Shown here: piece by piece, positions 184-46,613 of the stretch | How the letters are laid out: the number at the start of each line of letters is the position of its first letter | Numbering within the stretch: the first letter of the stretch is position 1 | Source: Candidatus Woesearchaeota archaeon | Lineage (GTDB): Archaea > Nanobdellota > Nanobdellia > Pacearchaeales > GW2011-AR1 | DNA length: 54,733 nucleotides | Reading direction: 5' to 3' | Assembly (NCBI GenBank): GCA_964437555.1 | Contig: CAYTHI010000005.1 | Coordinates: forward strand, 1-54,733 | Notes under the pieces: generated by a model | Databases searched by the model: none | The model's input: only the letters and a program-made list of their open reading frames with translations | What the model was told of the DNA's origin: nothing | Program-made: the position numbers and the translations under genes

Positions 184-1269
184 ATGAAAATCTGTTTTTT
201 TTCAGTAGGATTCGCTTTTAACAGGCTTGTCAGGTTAAGATATTATGAGAAGATCTTTCCAAAAAGTGTAGAGATGTTCCTTATAACTACAGATAAATAT
301 GCCGGAACAAAAGAAGAAAAATACCAGGATCAATGGGCATTAAAAAGGACCAAGGTGATTGTGATGAAGTATCATCCTTTGACAATTCCATTCAAATGCA
401 GAGATTTTTGCCGCAGGAATAAAATAGACATAGTGACTAATATGGGGCATCCTTACGGCGGAATACCTTTAATTATAGGAAGTATGTTTGATAAAAGAAG
501 ATTTATCCTTTACTTCTTCGGCGATACTCTTGAAACAACAAAACAGGACATATTCAGTAAATTTGGAATTAAGCTGTTTTTAAGACTCTTTCCGTATTTA
601 GTCATCGCAAGATTTGCGGACAAGATAGCATTCAATGGTCCGAAGAGCAAGGAAAAAGCGCCCGTTTTCTTTGCTCTGCCAAAAAGAAAGTTTTATTGCC
701 TGCATGCCCCGGTTAACATAAAAATTTTTCATCCAATGAACAGAAAAAAAGTTAGAAAAGAAATAGGCCTAAAAAAAGATGACAAAGTGATAATTTATGT
801 GGGAAGAGTATCCAAGAGAAAGCACGGAAAGCTGTTAAGTTATTTGGTAAAGTCAAATCCAGATATTAAATTTATTATAGCTGGCAAGTGGATAGAAAAG
901 GAGATTCCAAAAATCAAGGTGAAAAACTTAATTACTTTTGATAAAATTCCAAATGTTGAATTGACCAAATATTATTCTGCTGCAGATTTAAGTTTTGCCT
1001 GCCACATTCAGGGCTATCCTATGGGAATTGTTGCGGAAGAGTCTCTTGCATGCGGAACCCCCGTCCTGCATATAAAGGAATTAACCGCGGAGCCATCCAG
1101 AACCATAATCAAAATTGATGAAACGGACGCCAACAAAAAAATAAAAGAATTTTTTGAGTTGCCCGAGAAGACAAGAAGAGAGCTTGGAAAAGAAGCAAGA
1201 AAATACGCTGAAAAATACTTATCAGACGAAGTTTGGAAGGATAGATATGTTGATTTCTATCTTAAATAG
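184..1269 (+). CDS. GT4 family glycosyltransferase
   Basis: C-terminal GT-B motifs YVGRVSKRK and YSAAD...GIVAEESLACGTPV. Confidence 0.85.
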   Translation: MKICFFSVGFAFNRLVRLRYYEKIFPKSVEMFLITTDKYAGTKEEKYQDQWALKRTKVIVMKYHPLTIPFKCRDFCRRNKIDIVTNMGHPYGGIPLIIGSMFDKRRFILYFFGDTLETTKQDIFSKFGIKLFLRLFPYLVIARFADKIAFNGPKSKEKAPVFFALPKRKFYCLHAPVNIKIFHPMNRKKVRKEIGLKKDDKVIIYVGRVSKRKHGKLLSYLVKSNPDIKFIIAGKWIEKEIPKIKVKNLITFDKIPNVELTKYYSAADLSFACHIQGYPMGIVAEESLACGTPVLHIKELTAEPSRTIIKIDETDANKKIKEFFELPEKTRRELGKEARKYAEKYLSDEVWKDRYVDFYLK

Positions 1270-1311: not shown

Positions 1312-1638
1312 ATGGAAAAGATAGTTTTAAAGGATATTTCTGAGAAGGAGTTTTCAAAAATCAAAGGAGTTTTGTCAGATTATATCTCTGAGAGCAAGGA
1401 GAGGTATTTTGAGAAAGTTAAATCTGTTTTGTTTTCAGCTCCCACGGGCAGGCTTATAGTTCTCGATGGTCTAAATAAAGAGGATTTTAGAGATTTGATT
1501 GTCCTAATAGACTTTTATAATGTTTGGAAAACCGACAATGCAAAAAACTTCTGGGACGAAGAGCTTGAAGAAATCTATAATAAGCTAACTAAAAAGTTTA
1601 TAAGAATTTATAAAGAACAGCCATATAGTGATAGCTGA
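1312..1638 (+). CDS. Hypothetical protein, 108 aa
   Basis: Clean ORF with TTTATATA at 1281-1288; no recognised motif; ends 1 nt before the tRNA-like RNA. Confidence 0.65.
   Translation: MEKIVLKDISEKEFSKIKGVLSDYISESKERYFEKVKSVLFSAPTGRLIVLDGLNKEDFRDLIVLIDFYNVWKTDNAKNFWDEELEEIYNKLTKKFIRIYKEQPYSDS
1607..1614 (+). promoter_or_regulatory. Candidate TATA box for the tRNA-like RNA
   Basis: AAGAA-TTTATAAA (purine-rich BRE plus TATA) ending 26 nt before 1640; similar to the tRNA-Ser promoter spacing (24 nt). Confidence 0.55.
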
Positions 1639-1639
1639 T

Positions 1640-1720
1640 GGCAGGGACGCCATTTGGTCTGGCAAGCGCTTCGGCGCTCTTCGGTTTACCGAGAAGTTGG
1701 TTCAATTCCATCCCCTGCCG
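1640..1720 (+). ncRNA. tRNA-like RNA (type II, Ser-like) with a UUCG tetraloop in place of the anticodon loop
   Basis: Acceptor GGCAGGG/CCCTGCC plus discriminator G; D arm GCCA-TTTGGTC-TGGC; AGCGC-TTCG-GCGCT; variable arm TTCGG-TTTA-CCGAG; T arm GTTGG-TTCAATT-CCATC. Confidence 0.85.
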
Positions 1721-1722
1721 CC

Positions 1723-2337
1723 TTATATTCTCCCTTTAAACTTATCCCAAATATATTTGGCAAAGGAGAGATTTCTTATTATTTTTCTCCCTAGCGCCTC
1801 CAGAATCGGATACTCTTTTTTATAAATTAAAACATCACCCCACTTTTCCTTGAATTTATTTACTCCCAAAAGATGCCCTCGGGCTTTAATCTGCCATCCA
1901 CCGAGATCAAATTTTTTATAGCCCTTGCTTTTTGCCCAAATCAATCCAGTCCAATAAATAAGACTATTTGGCTGAAGGTTCCAATAATCTTTATCTGCTG
2001 CGATTATGTAAAGCCTTGGAATTGCTGAATCATACCTTTCACTAAATAAGATTATAGCTCCCCCAACTACTTTTTTCCCTTTTTTACACACTAAAAAGGC
2101 TTTTGATTTTGATTTTATGTCCTCCAGAGGGAAGATGCTTGTTCCTCCATCTTTCATTATCACTTTGTAAATTTCATAAAAATCTTTCCAATCTTCCTCC
2201 GAATTAGACTCTTTTACGGATAAACCAGATTTCTTTGATTTCTTTATTCCAAGCCTTGCGTCCTTTTTTAGATTTTTAAATATCCTGTATACTGACTGGC
2301 CCACATCCACTAAAATTGTAGCATTAATATCTTTCAT
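1723..2337 (-). CDS. FemABX-like (GNAT fold) putative aminoacyl-tRNA-dependent transferase
   Basis: Basic helix KKDARLGIKKSKKSGL and motifs PNSLIYW, GYKKFDLGG and GVNKFKEKWG characteristic of the Fem C-terminal domain. Confidence 0.8.
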   Translation of the reverse strand: MKDINATILVDVGQSVYRIFKNLKKDARLGIKKSKKSGLSVKESNSEEDWKDFYEIYKVIMKDGGTSIFPLEDIKSKSKAFLVCKKGKKVVGGAIILFSERYDSAIPRLYIIAADKDYWNLQPNSLIYWTGLIWAKSKGYKKFDLGGWQIKARGHLLGVNKFKEKWGDVLIYKKEYPILEALGRKIIRNLSFAKYIWDKFKGRI

Positions 2338-2338
2338 T

Positions 2339-3073
2339 TTAAAGATTATGATTAATCAGCTGAAAGTAATAATCAAAATGAAGATTTCTTTTTAAAATAT
2401 AGTACACTTTAGGGTTATTCTTCATAATTTTTTTGGAAAAATTAATTAATTTTCTTATAAAAGGATACTTGCTTTTTCTTACTATTTTCTTTTCCTGGTC
2501 TGTATATATGGTATTGAATCTCTCATTTATGCTCGGAGGAGTAAAATTTCTAACACTTAAAAATTTAAACAGCTTATTGAGCTCCTGCTGTTTATTTTTA
2601 TTCTCCATATTAAATATAAAAACTTTCTTTTTTCCAAATTCTTTGATAAATGGCCTGATGAAATCTTTTTGATTAATTTCTTTTACAGGATTATCGCTGA
2701 CATCTGTTCCTTCAACTAGATCATAGTGTTTTGCAACATTATATGAAGATTCCGCCCTCTTTTTCTCATTCCTGACATAAATGATTATCTTTGTATTTGG
2801 AAACAGCTTTTTTAGAAGGTTAGCAGATCTTTTCTTGAATATTATTAAAGTGCTTAATTCTCCAACAACCTTATCGAAATCACACTTCTTGAATTTTTTT
2901 TCATAATTCTCAAGGCCCATTATTTCATACTCTTCAGGAAAATAGTTAATTTCTGTATGAAGATTGAATTTGGGCGTGCTTATTTCAGGATGCTCATAAA
3001 GGCAGTTAACTAGCCATTTTGAGCCGCTTCTTCCGAAACCTACTCCTATAAAGTCTAATCTGAATTTGTCCAT
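2339..3073 (-). CDS. Sulfotransferase family protein
   Basis: DFIGVGFGRSGSKWL...HPEI (PAPS-binding loop), EINYF, GELS, KIIIYVRN..RAES. Confidence 0.75.
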   Translation of the reverse strand: MDKFRLDFIGVGFGRSGSKWLVNCLYEHPEISTPKFNLHTEINYFPEEYEIMGLENYEKKFKKCDFDKVVGELSTLIIFKKRSANLLKKLFPNTKIIIYVRNEKKRAESSYNVAKHYDLVEGTDVSDNPVKEINQKDFIRPFIKEFGKKKVFIFNMENKNKQQELNKLFKFLSVRNFTPPSINERFNTIYTDQEKKIVRKSKYPFIRKLINFSKKIMKNNPKVYYILKRNLHFDYYFQLINHNL

Positions 3074-3110: not shown

Positions 3111-3803
3111 TCATTTTCCAAAGAAGATTATATACCTTGCCAGCCACTGAATGCTTGAAAGGGCTCCGAAGGATATAAATAAGAAATAAGGCGCATTGAA
3201 GAATACGCCAATAGCTACTAATGACCATTGAATGTCTAAAGCGAAAGAAAATACGCCAGGACTAATACCAAAGAAAGTCCTGCTAAGGCCTTTTCTAACA
3301 TTATCCAAAGGGTTGTTTAAATTAAACTTTTTTCTTAGAACTTCTGAAAGAAGCGCCGCATAATTAATCATCATATAACTAAAGATGTTATAAGTTCCGA
3401 GAAAAATTAGGTTTATGTCTCCGGTTTCAGCAAAATTTTTCATCATCAATGCAAAAAAGACTGCACAGACCCCAATAAATCCAGAACTTTCATCCAGCCA
3501 TTTGCCCATTGCATTTTTCTTGTTGTAATATCTTGCAACTGTTCCGTCAGACAAATCTGCGACTAATCCAAACATAACTAAAATTCCCGCTAAAATCATC
3601 CAGTTTCCGCCTAAAAAGTAAATTATGAAGGAGGCAGATAATGTTGCAGCTAATCCAATAAGATTAACAAGATGGGCATGCATTCCTAATGAAATAGCAA
3701 TCCAGGAATAAAAGACGGAAAAAGGGTAATAAATGTATTTGATTAAAGGCCTTGCCAAATGGTCTTCTTTGAAATATTTTGACACTTCATTTATGCTAGG
3801 CAT
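3111..3803 (-). CDS. CDP-alcohol phosphotransferase family membrane protein
   Basis: DLSDGTVARYYNKKNAMGKWLD motif; start moved to the ATG at 3803 (TATA 22 nt upstream). Confidence 0.8.
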   Translation of the reverse strand: MPSINEVSKYFKEDHLARPLIKYIYYPFSVFYSWIAISLGMHAHLVNLIGLAATLSASFIIYFLGGNWMILAGILVMFGLVADLSDGTVARYYNKKNAMGKWLDESSGFIGVCAVFFALMMKNFAETGDINLIFLGTYNIFSYMMINYAALLSEVLRKKFNLNNPLDNVRKGLSRTFFGISPGVFSFALDIQWSLVAIGVFFNAPYFLFISFGALSSIQWLARYIIFFGK

Positions 3804-3885
3804 GATTAACAAACAGATTTGCTGTTTTTAAACATAATGAAGAAGTCATGGATAAATTTTTAAAGGGCTTACAATCTTAGATTCC

Positions 3886-4872
3886 ATGGAGAAAAGATTT
3901 AAAATAATATGCACAATCGGGCCAGAATCTAATAAGCCTGAGATTCTTGAAAAGTTAAAAAGTAGAGGTATAGATTTTTTCAGGATAAATCTCTCGCATA
4001 CAGATGAAGAAGATATAGAAGAAAGGATATTAGACTTAATTGATTTAGGAGTACCTATTATATTGGATACAGAAGGTTCTCAAGTTAGATCCGGCAATAA
4101 TGAAGAAGTTGAGCTTGCCGAAGGATCCGAGCTAAGAATATATAATAAAAAAATAGATTGTAATTCAACCAAAATATTTTTAAAGCCTATTTCAACAATA
4201 GAAAATTTAAAAAAAGGAGATAAATTACATTTGGATTTTGAATTAACTTCCATAGAAGTAACCGATTCTTCTAGTTTGAAGGAAAAAGGATATATTACCT
4301 GCAAAGTAATCAAAGGAGGCCCCATAGGGGCTAAAAAAGGAGTTCATGTTGAAGGAAGCATAGCTTTGCCATCTTTCAGTCAAAAAGATAAAAGAGCAAT
4401 AGAATTGGCTAAAAAATACGGAATAAAAACATTCACTCTATCTTTTATTAAAAACGTAAATGATGTTAAAGAATTCAAAAAGTATTATCCAGAAGCTACT
4501 GTTTACTCAAAAATAGAACGTGCAGAAGGCCTTAAAAATTTTGAAGAAATTGCAAACATCTCTAATGGTATTTTAATTGACCGAGGAGACTTAAGCAGAG
4601 AAGTAGAATCGGAAGAAATACCATTCATAAAGAAGAAGATTATCAGGTATTGCAAATCAATTGGAAAAGAAGTCTTTGTTGCAACTAACACTTTAGAAGG
4701 AATGGCAAATTCTCTTAAGCATAATCAAGCAGAAATAAACGATGTGGCCAATATTTTACTTGATGGAGCTGCAGGCATTGCGCTTACAAAAGAAACTGCT
4801 GTAGGTAAGTATCCTATCGAAACAGTAGACCGTCTTATCAAAATAATGGAAAAGACTAGTTTATTTACTTAA
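3886..4872 (+). CDS. pyk: Pyruvate kinase-like protein (barrel and lid only, no C-terminal domain)
   Basis: IICTIGP, FRINLSH, SKIE, IDRGDL, VATN, DGA..L..ETAVGKYP; 328 aa. Confidence 0.8.
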   Translation: MEKRFKIICTIGPESNKPEILEKLKSRGIDFFRINLSHTDEEDIEERILDLIDLGVPIILDTEGSQVRSGNNEEVELAEGSELRIYNKKIDCNSTKIFLKPISTIENLKKGDKLHLDFELTSIEVTDSSSLKEKGYITCKVIKGGPIGAKKGVHVEGSIALPSFSQKDKRAIELAKKYGIKTFTLSFIKNVNDVKEFKKYYPEATVYSKIERAEGLKNFEEIANISNGILIDRGDLSREVESEEIPFIKKKIIRYCKSIGKEVFVATNTLEGMANSLKHNQAEINDVANILLDGAAGIALTKETAVGKYPIETVDRLIKIMEKTSLFT

Positions 4873-46507: not shown

Positions 46508-46613
46508 CGCCCACGCCCGGAATCGAACCGGGATATCCCGAAGGAAAACGGTTTGCTCGCATCATCTGACTTATTGGCTCAAGACCGTCCGAGTACCATT
46601 GTCGCACGTGGGC
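46508..46613 (-). tRNA. tRNA-Ser(UGA) with a 24-nt intron at 37/38 (46554-46577)
   Basis: GCCCACG/CGTGGGC+G, ACGGT-CT-TGA-G[intron]A-ACCGT, long variable arm TCC-TTCG-GGA, CCCGG-TTCGATT-CCGGG; bulge-helix-bulge CUUG/CGAG. Confidence 0.92.

Follow-up and report, generated by a model that had tools for sequence, protein, structure and literature searches.

The stretch analysed here, hereafter the window, is the entire contig C5 (CAYTHI010000005.1; 54,733 nucleotides) of a draft genome of a Candidatus Woesearchaeota archaeon (GCA_964437555.1; 690 kb in 20 contigs, 95.7% complete), whose relatives in the public records are named Woesearchaeota, Pacearchaeota or 'Nanoarchaeota' and belong to the DPANN archaea. 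Close to its beginning lies an anticodon-less tRNA-like gene (1640..1720, + strand), hereafter the element, which was delineated from the sequence, RNAfold, the E-value mode of Rfam, a cloverleaf scan and strain assemblies. The adjacent gene (1723..2337, - strand) encodes a FemAB-family aminoacyl-tRNA-dependent transferase of 204 amino acids (aa) with a single GNAT-like domain, as indicated by PF02388, TIGR03019, a PDB profile, an AlphaFold (AF2) model and Foldseek. The Fem-like gene is convergent with the element and its stop codon touches the 3' end of the element (G1720, followed by CC at 1721-1722). This neighbour, absent from an initial annotation made from the sequence of the window alone, is the key to the mechanism proposed below.

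The element folds into a four-armed cloverleaf. The acceptor stem (1640-1646/1713-1719) comprises seven Watson-Crick pairs and is followed by A8 (1647) and C9 (1648). The D arm (1649-1663) consists of a 4-bp stem (1649-1652/1660-1663) and a 7-nt loop (1653-1659) with GG at 1656-1657, and A26 (1664) leads into a perfect 5-bp stem at the anticodon position (1665-1669/1674-1678). In place of the 7-nt loop with an anticodon that a canonical tRNA requires, this stem carries a 4-nt UUCG tetraloop (1670-1673) with a C-G closing pair (cUUCGg). The 17-nt variable region (1679-1695) forms a 5-bp stem (1680-1684/1689-1693) around a 4-nt loop. The T arm (1696-1712) contributes another 5-bp stem (1696-1700/1708-1712), in which U1697 lies opposite U1711, and the T loop TTCAATT (1701-1707). 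The discriminator is G73 (G1720); the CC that follows it (1721..1722) does not extend to a full CCA, and the next base begins the Fem-like stop codon on the opposite strand. Apart from the missing anticodon loop, the acceptor stem, the D arm, the 5-bp stem, the 5-bp T stem and the 7-nt T loop of a canonical cloverleaf are thus all present. Of the 26 modelled pairs 25 are standard, the exception being U50.U64, and the D/T elbow is intact, with both G18/G19 and the T loop TTCAATT retained. The initial annotation had described the cloverleaf at 1640-1720 in these terms (the stems, the GG in the D loop, the UUCG cap and the G followed by CC), and its description holds on re-reading and in RNAfold. 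In standard numbering, the swapped A8/U14 (1647/1653) and U15/A48 (1654/1695) and the U-U mismatch of pair 50-64 (1697/1711) are present as it had reported. Its 5-bp variable arm is there as well, with the correction that one pair is U.G, hence not all pairs are Watson-Crick.

RNAfold returned this cloverleaf as the minimum free energy structure (-34.3 kcal/mol, z -2.8), and one of 200 shuffles was as good. The element is also a GC island, with 59-60% GC versus 34% in the surrounding sequence. A custom cloverleaf scanner that permits an 'anticodon' loop of 3-9 nt was run over the whole 690-kb genome. The element ranked third genome-wide with a score of 56, the genome's real tRNAs scoring 50-59; all other matches with a score of at least 50 were ARAGORN tRNAs, and the scan found no second short-loop element in the genome. 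Among 102,741 shuffled bases, two matches reached a score of at least 42. The observation is genuine and not due to chance.

Standard tools miss the element. ARAGORN reported 0 genes in the window and none at the element in intron mode either; the initial annotation had foreseen an undetermined or pseudogene call. Rfam gave 0 matches for the element at the gathering threshold, and its E-value mode returned tRNA-Sec as the single family. The element resembles tRNA-Sec (RF01852) in its long variable arm and G73. Identity as tRNA-Sec was rejected on the score (25.3 bits versus a gathering score of 47), on the 7/5 helices, which are neither 9/4 nor 8/5, and on the lack of a UCA anticodon; the 4-bp D stem with its 7-nt loop is a further difference. 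A split, permuted or intron-bearing tRNA was likewise rejected, as the two halves are contiguous with nothing inserted. The remnant of an integration site was rejected because both acceptor strands are complete and no integrase occurs among the annotated open reading frames (ORFs) beside the element.

Strain assemblies show that the short loop is real. Logan contigs from the probable source run are identical over the element. Contigs from three further studies of groundwater and freshwater, about 95% identical to the window (X2 record 10, X3 record 15 and X4 record 20), span 1640-1722 with zero gaps in the body, and the sole indel among them over this interval is a 2-nt loss at 1722 in X4. The short loop is not an assembly error, because four assemblies from four studies, one of them the probable source, lack an indel in the arm. 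The 3-nt assembly deletion in the loop that the initial annotation had raised as a possibility is therefore not borne out and is excluded for practical purposes, and none of these strains has an ordinary 7-nt loop. Among the 40 best-supported strain differences listed, all are upstream of 1293. In X2 record 10, about 90 bases at approximately 1631-1633, between the ORF at 1312-1638 and the element, could not be aligned at 80% likeness; the size of this insert would fit a second tRNA-like gene.

The element carries its own promoter box. A TATA-like TTTAWAW motif (1607..1613, + strand) starts 33 nt upstream of its 5' end, and a second copy lies at 1597-1603 (+ strand), at -43. The same motif starts at -36 to -28 in 24 of the 39 ARAGORN tRNAs of the genome, with a mode at -31/-30, compared with a genome-wide frequency of 0.0015 per position. 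The box at -33 thus falls inside the range of the genome's tRNA genes.

The sequence and predicted fold of the Fem-like protein identify the neighbouring gene as an aminoacyl-tRNA transferase. The protein matched PF02388 (E 4.4e-7, above the cut-off) and part of the TIGR03019 model (E 8.9e-13), and it is the sole FemAB match of the genome. A profile of 39 Fem-like homologues was used in a PDB profile search, in which the matches included 9wqw (E 1.8e-12, residues 146-304 of 311), 6snr and 1ne9; in FemX the matched region covers residues 168-294 of 335. The structure 9wqw is a solved aminoacyl-tRNA-dependent peptide synthase, and the profile matches the C-terminal lobe of such enzymes and of FemX. 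The AF2 model has a pLDDT of 94.6. It was matched by Foldseek to 9wqy with an E value of 2e-12 and TMq of 0.73, and the top matches were Sba18/Sbb17, FemX of Weissella and Staphylococcus, MprF synthase domains and FemA, all of which draw the amino acid from a charged tRNA. N160, F162 and K163 are invariant across the 39 Fem-like sequences, and F162/K163 would correspond to the catalytic Phe-Lys of FemX. In two other loci the short Fem-like domain is fused to an S-adenosylmethionine-dependent methyltransferase (L067 820-2118, - strand) or to a GNAT acetyltransferase (L070 1495-2709, + strand). These fusions hint that the amino group of the transferred amino acid may be modified further; they would be expected if the product carries a free amino group.

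Short Fem-like genes occur in 36 of the 201 sampled genomes of the order, the genome of the window (G000) included, and they were also present in 28 metagenome loci and 11 genome loci. ARAGORN was run on 69 Fem loci and placed a tRNA beside the Fem-like gene in 16 of them, comprising 15 tRNA-Val (UAC or CAC) and one tRNA with a Thr anticodon (L112, UGU). Most of the 15 tRNA-Val genes are convergent with the Fem-like gene. With the exception of L113, where the tRNA lies approximately 550 nt downstream, the Fem-adjacent tRNAs are within about 130 nt of the Fem-like ORF, and 11 overlap its 3' end; the L112 tRNA (2422-2497, + strand) overlaps the 5' end of the Fem-like ORF as called. Four further loci (L074, L102, L126 and L127) have an atypical AGU tRNA just upstream of the Fem-like gene, representing two sequences that each occur in duplicate. 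Examples of these Fem-adjacent tRNAs are L103 3189-3262 (-), L128 2246-2318 (-), L078 1359-1429 (+) and L074 1409-1477 (+). Those of L078 and L074 matched RF00005 with 56.9 and 37.3 bits, both above the gathering score of 29 bits, and the remaining ones are ARAGORN calls. In a protein tree of 59 distinct Fem-like sequences, 14 rows with tRNA-Val, together with L117 on a truncated contig, fall on one side of a branch with 100/100 support, and the two Thr-like cases fall in two pairs neighbouring that side.

The Fem-adjacent tRNAs are extra copies beyond the housekeeping isoacceptors. Genomes G225 and G226 each possess a housekeeping tRNA-Val(UAC) plus a divergent Fem-adjacent tRNA-Val(UAC). Among the 40 tRNA matches typed in G088, CAC is represented solely by the Fem-adjacent tRNA, which does not resemble the two housekeeping Val tRNAs in its acceptor stem. 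One acceptor stem, with the 5' strand GCUGCYG, is common to the Fem-adjacent tRNAs whatever their anticodon, and G19 or C56 is missing in several of them. Pair 50-64, assigned by eye, is G.U in nine of 16 sister tRNAs, U.U in three, C.C in three and Watson-Crick in L112 only, so that with the element it is non-Watson-Crick in 16 of 17 Fem-adjacent RNAs. In the 39 ARAGORN tRNAs of the genome, by comparison, the same pair is Watson-Crick in 35, G.U in four and mismatched in none. The initial annotation had singled out this pair as a known determinant of affinity for EF-Tu/EF1A, and the contrast lends indirect support to its idea, by which the pair may affect binding to aEF1A. No paper was found on the Fem-adjacent extra tRNAs of Woesearchaeota or Pacearchaeota.

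Two side features of the sister loci concern the downstream end of the Fem-like gene. In L103 (3189-3229), L104 and L107-L111, the Fem-like ORF reads approximately 20-40 nt into the tRNA-Val in antisense, which yields a conserved Fem C-terminal tail with the same last residues; either the two genes truly overlap or the ORF has been called too long. In L099 (3113-3781) and L125 (3044-3618), a gap of 575-669 nt past the Fem-like gene contains three to four units of a repeat that is not tRNA-like; every unit combines a short GC hairpin, its loop of the UUCG type, with AT-rich flanks common to all units.

The element occupies the slot that these tRNAs occupy in their own cassettes. Upstream of it, on the same strand, lies a group-1 glycosyltransferase (GT1) gene (184..1269, + strand; PF00534, E 1.6e-15), as in the tRNA-Val loci, and between the two is a small ORF of 108 aa (1312..1638, + strand) whose stop codon is separated by 1 nt from the 5' end of the element. 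Beyond the Fem-like gene are a sulfotransferase-like gene (2339..3073, - strand; PF00685, E 1.1e-6), the stop codon of which is directly beside the Fem-like start codon, a CDP-alcohol phosphatidyltransferase family gene (3111..3812, - strand; PF01066, E 3e-10) and a gene for a pyruvate-kinase barrel-domain protein (3886..4872, + strand; PF00224, E 6e-65) with counterparts in L099 and L103. When flipped, the order in the window is pyruvate kinase (-), CDP-alcohol phosphatidyltransferase (+), sulfotransferase (+), Fem (+), tRNA-like element (-) and GT1 (-). The order in the tRNA-Val loci is pyruvate kinase (-) in L103, CDP-alcohol phosphatidyltransferase (+) in L103 and L114, sulfotransferase (+), Fem (+), tRNA, and GT1 (-) in L103, L109 and L114, the tRNA being on the - strand in L103 and L109 and on the + strand in L114. 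The flipped window therefore reproduces the order and strands of L103, with the element at the place of the tRNA and the small ORF as an extra. No Pfam family was found for this ORF, which is absent from the tRNA-Val loci and has only two homologues beyond itself (64% and 53% identical). A homologue search in 401 genomes added one weak relative in G352 (35% identity, E 3.5e-6). There, on G352:C1 (L187), the relative (1495-1845, + strand) adjoins a tRNA-Gly(UCC) (1407-1478, + strand) whose acceptor stem contains a G.A mismatch; the next gene encodes a glycosyltransferase, and no Fem gene lies within the 3.3 kb available.

The identities of the flanking genes differ sharply from that of the transferase itself. 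The CDP-alcohol phosphatidyltransferase and sulfotransferase-like proteins of the window are 80 and 70% identical, respectively, to those of L103 and 77 and 81% identical to those of L117 and L128; for the former the range over L103, L110, L117 and L128 is 75-80%. For the GT1, identity to its counterparts in the loci of the tRNA-Val clade is 51-63%, and 28% in the case of L116. The Fem-like protein, however, is merely 34-38% identical to the Fem proteins of those tRNA-Val loci. Its nearest relatives (47-54%) belong to another clade, in which the cassette-bearing loci have flanks only 55-60% identical to those of the window. Because the flanks match the tRNA-Val loci at 70-81% while the Fem-like protein does so at only 34-38%, the simplest account of these sequence comparisons is that the transferase and its tRNA piece were replaced as a unit inside a conserved cassette. 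Such joint replacement is expected of a functional pair.

The features of the element point to serine as its amino acid. The serine determinants are G73, the long variable arm and G30-C40, and the anticodon plays no part in serylation, as set out by Giegé and Eriani (PMC9976931). The element has G73 (G1720), a 17-nt variable region, compared with 15-17 nt in the Ser tRNAs of the genome, and G30-C40 (G1668-C1675). Four ordinary Ser isoacceptors are present elsewhere in the genome, as is one full-length gene for seryl-tRNA synthetase (SerRS; C1:10831-12081). The genome's tRNAs with G73 are the four Ser tRNAs and those labelled Asp, Asn and Arg by ARAGORN; the Asp, Asn and Arg synthetases need the anticodon. 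Judged from these sequence features, serine is probably the only obvious charging route, since recognition by SerRS depends on the long variable arm and G73 and disregards the anticodon. The sister tRNAs, which retain an anticodon, have A73 with NAC anticodons and U73 with UGU or AGU. According to PMC9976931, valine identity requires A35 and A73, and U73 is a threonine determinant in Haloferax. Retention of the anticodon in the sister tRNAs fits the need of Val identity for A35. This suggests a rule by which a private donor tRNA keeps its anticodon if the synthetase reads it and is free to lose it otherwise.

On the enzyme side, the acceptor arm alone suffices for Fem enzymes; FemX_Wv of Weissella accepts aminoacylated helices with G2-C71 as the main determinant, as described in PMC2655667. 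The element has G2-C71, whereas all four Ser tRNAs of the genome have C2-G71, and the Fem-adjacent Val tRNAs also differ from their housekeeping partners at pair 2-71. In other respects the element agrees with a canonical tRNA-Ser: it shares G73, the length of the variable region, G30-C40, the 7-bp acceptor stem and the 5-bp T stem. It departs from the genome's tRNA-Ser in the absent anticodon loop, in A8/U14 instead of U8/A14 and in the U.U at 50-64, in addition to pair 2-71.

On balance we lean, with guarded confidence, towards the interpretation that the element takes no part in decoding and serves as a dedicated donor tRNA, probably of serine, to the Fem-type transferase encoded next to it. 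The less demanding view, in which the element is a functional RNA linked to the transferase, we consider likely. An archaeal promoter of its own, of the tRNA type, would drive transcription of the element, and the intact acceptor stem, T arm and D/T elbow would allow it to mature as tRNAs do; aminoacylation, likely with serine, would follow. The charged element would then pass its amino acid to the single-domain FemAB-family transferase, which would decorate a surface glycan or lipid built by the cassette with its glycosyltransferases, CDP-alcohol phosphatidyltransferase and sulfotransferase-like protein. With cUUCGg instead of an anticodon loop, ribosomal decoding would be impossible. The weak T stem (U50.U64, U51-A63) may lower binding to aEF1A, and the charged pool would thereby be reserved for the transferase. 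The initial annotation had proposed selection for an L-shaped, non-translating RNA. That direction stands, now by way of the Fem neighbour, the sister slot, the joint swap, the promoter box and the strain loops. The compensated tertiary pairs that it had offered as evidence of selection do not carry the case: A8/U14 and U15/A48 come from a single sequence, for which the searches gave no diverged homologue that could reveal covariation.

Dedicated donor tRNAs, known as a textbook curiosity, have a precedent in bacteria. In Staphylococcus aureus and S. epidermidis, non-proteogenic tRNA-Gly isoacceptors serve as donors for FmhB, FemA and FemB; the usual synthetase charges them, their D and T arms are atypical and their binding to EF-Tu is weak, as summarized in PMC7826273 and PMC9976931. 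PMC7826273 states that non-proteogenic tRNAs have so far been detected only in those two staphylococcal species. Like a non-proteogenic tRNA, the element is extra to the decoding set and genetically tied to an aminoacyl-tRNA transferase. It resembles the staphylococcal tRNA-Gly as a supernumerary gene of tRNA shape whose T stem is weak, and it lies next to a gene of the Fem family. The staphylococcal tRNA-Gly, in contrast, keep a 7-nt loop with a UCC anticodon, and their system is bacterial, serves peptidoglycan and employs a two-lobe transferase, whereas a DPANN archaeon, a putative glycan or lipid acceptor and one GNAT lobe are involved here. The Fem-adjacent sister tRNAs are a second counterpart. 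They occupy the same cassette slot, on the same strand relative to Fem and GT1 in L103, and are likewise extra to the decoding set; they differ from the element in their 7-nt loop with UAC, CAC, UGU or AGU, their short variable loop, A73 or U73 and the GCUGCYG acceptor strand.

Charging without decoding is also known from other RNAs. According to PMC9976931, tRNA-Sec is serylated by SerRS and kept off the standard elongation factor. The tRNA-like domain of tmRNA, minihelices and viral tRNA-like structures lack a decoding anticodon and are still charged via the acceptor end, as noted in PMC3985003 and PMC9976931. These RNAs are parts of larger molecules or incomplete cloverleaves and act in ribosome rescue or viral replication, whereas the element is a free-standing four-arm cloverleaf linked to a transferase gene. 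What looks new compared with known dedicated tRNAs is the archaeal setting, the one-lobe enzyme, the exchangeable enzyme-tRNA module and, above all, the missing anticodon. No paper was found on an anticodon-less cellular tRNA or on a Fem-linked tRNA in archaea.

Several observations weigh against the donor interpretation. The core of the element departs from near-universal nucleotides at A8/U14 and C21, and position 8 is T in 38, and position 14 A in 38, of the genome's 39 ARAGORN tRNAs; A8/U14 and C21 might impair folding or recognition by SerRS. The strain contigs X2-X4 each have 5-9 differences across the element, given as counts without positions. The element does not encode CCA. Post-transcriptional addition is nevertheless the normal route in this genome, because the base after the tRNA, printed by ARAGORN for 21 of the 39 genes, is t (19) or c (2) and none of these 21 shows an encoded CCA. 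The Fem-like protein has one lobe in 204 aa, and not the two tandem GNAT-like lobes (approximately 290-430 aa) of the FemAB family, as present in FemX. The other 18 rows of the Fem clade of the window, most of which lie in tightly packed operons, have no tRNA or tRNA-like element nearby, and this clade evidently works without a private tRNA. Finally, the element shares just the T loop with the sister-clade tRNAs, neither the acceptor stem nor other sequence, a comparison that does not show common descent with them.

The search for homologues adds to these points. BLAST of 83 nt in 60 relatives gave only matches of 14-25 nt with E values of at least 0.05, and within its own genome the element matched only itself and no other tRNA. 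A covariance model, R1, was built from the single element sequence. Its 11 best matches across 149 family genomes did not exceed 29 bits; nine were ordinary Trp, Met or His tRNAs and the other two, on L174 and L176, had no ARAGORN call. R1 found nothing in the 10 genomes with the closest Fem-like genes. On the Fem loci (26 and nine with filters off, 43 with default filters) it found only ordinary or atypical tRNAs and a weak match on L122, and for the closest clade the E-value mode of Rfam, applied to 19 and 15 Fem loci, brought nothing further. The anticodon-less form is thus a singleton beyond strains about 95% identical. With no diverged homologue there is no covariation, and hence no proof of selection on the sequence of the element. 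The L122 match (3133-3179, + strand) is a 47-nt hairpin right after the Fem-like stop codon (-19.1 kcal/mol, z -3.3). Its outer stem is nearly that of the element's acceptor stem, with the 5' strand identical at 8 of 8 positions and two C-to-U changes in the 3' strand that keep the pairing. The hairpin could be what remains of the same tRNA-like gene, in which case loss of such genes would be common, or it could be unrelated and resemble a terminator.

Some of these observations would also be accounted for if the element were itself a relic, that is, a once dedicated Fem-associated tRNA that is now unused and heading for loss, its tetraloop being a 3-nt deletion with a chance stable cap. Loss is the rule in the same Fem clade, where no other row has an adjacent tRNA, and the L122 hairpin, close in sequence to the acceptor stem, might be what is left of a copy; the non-canonical core positions 8, 14 and 21 and the missing diverged homologues are in keeping with decay as well. 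The preservation of the element speaks otherwise. Nearly every pair is intact and the GC content stands far above background, the elbow nucleotides, the T loop and the promoter box are kept, and the length is maintained in the assemblies of three non-source studies at about 95% identity. It is unlikely that a random 3-nt deletion would leave precisely C(UUCG)G at the tip of a perfect 5-bp stem. Moreover, if L122 is a relic, it shows fast decay of an unused copy, unlike the element. Decay in progress is therefore unlikely in our estimate, though it deserves to be taken seriously.

The position of the element is compatible with a different role, that of a processing or termination element between convergent operons which is cut by RNase P and tRNase Z or stops read-through and is neither charged nor used by the transferase. 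It sits exactly between convergent genes, 1 nt past the stop of the ORF at 1312-1638 and against the Fem-like stop, and the sister-clade tRNAs are found at the same convergent junction. Signals for tRNA-like 3'-end processing are known elsewhere, mascRNA being an example, and the Rfam family RF01684 gave a weak match on L078. G73, an intact elbow and a variable arm of the Ser type would be superfluous in such a role, and the promoter box also argues against it. It leaves unexplained why sister loci retain an additional isoacceptor, for Val or Thr, whose discriminator and anticodon match, and why enzyme and tRNA were replaced together. A mere processing signal consequently strikes us as improbable.

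A regulatory role, in which the element, charged or uncharged, is a decoy that ties up SerRS, a tRNA-binding protein or the transferase and donates no amino acid, or a scaffold for a tRNA-dependent change of serine before transfer, would make use of the Ser-type identity features. The scaffold version could draw on the P-loop sulfotransferase-like protein, the gene of which is tightly coupled to the Fem-like gene, and regulatory tRNA-like molecules are treated in reviews. There is no direct evidence for either version. The sulfotransferase-like gene also lies beside Val-type tRNAs, and valine is without a hydroxyl to modify; the donor role is the simplest use for a tRNA beside an aminoacyl-tRNA transferase. 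We give the decoy or scaffold little credence. That the 4-nt loop is an assembly or sequencing artefact of a gene with a true 7-nt anticodon loop, as might be feared of a metagenome-assembled draft in 20 contigs, has a negligible probability in view of the identical source contigs and the gap-free arms from three other studies.

If the donor interpretation is true, the division of labour seen in staphylococci would also exist in archaea with very small genomes, with the transferase-tRNA gene pair widespread within one lineage, and it could go as far as deletion of the anticodon, a step permitted only by anticodon-blind synthetases. The element would provide a natural test that separates the parts of a tRNA needed for maturation, charging and non-ribosomal use from those needed for decoding. 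The cassette suggests that DPANN archaea decorate their surface glycans or lipids with amino acids, and such decoration may play a part in attachment to host cells. It is possible, although we would sooner doubt than assert it, that a more general DPANN module exists in which a single-lobe Fem-type transferase and its private tRNA travel and are exchanged as a pair and the identity of the tRNA sets the surface amino acid, the Val and Thr versions keeping the anticodon and the Ser version having lost the loop. On that view the element would be the first natural full-cloverleaf tRNA that is charged yet unable to decode, an 'amino-acid carrier RNA' separate from translation. As both ARAGORN and Rfam miss the element, it falls in a blind spot of annotation, and similar carrier RNAs may be common yet unseen.

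Two further features of the window were noted. According to ARAGORN in intron mode, many tRNA genes of the genome have introns. One such gene (46508-46613, - strand) is a tRNA-Ser(UGA) that has G73, the loop CUUGA-G and a long variable arm and is interrupted at 37/38 by an intron of 24 nt. ARAGORN in intron mode wrongly labels it Ala(tgc), and the gene is missed by ARAGORN without introns and by Rfam at the gathering threshold. The initial annotation had correctly called it a tRNA-Ser, as is evident from G73, the long variable arm and its close resemblance to the tRNA-Ser(CGA) of the genome. In addition, a GC peak of 57% over 70 nt, compared with 34% overall, is located at approximately 997-1100 (+ strand) within the GT1 ORF (184-1269).

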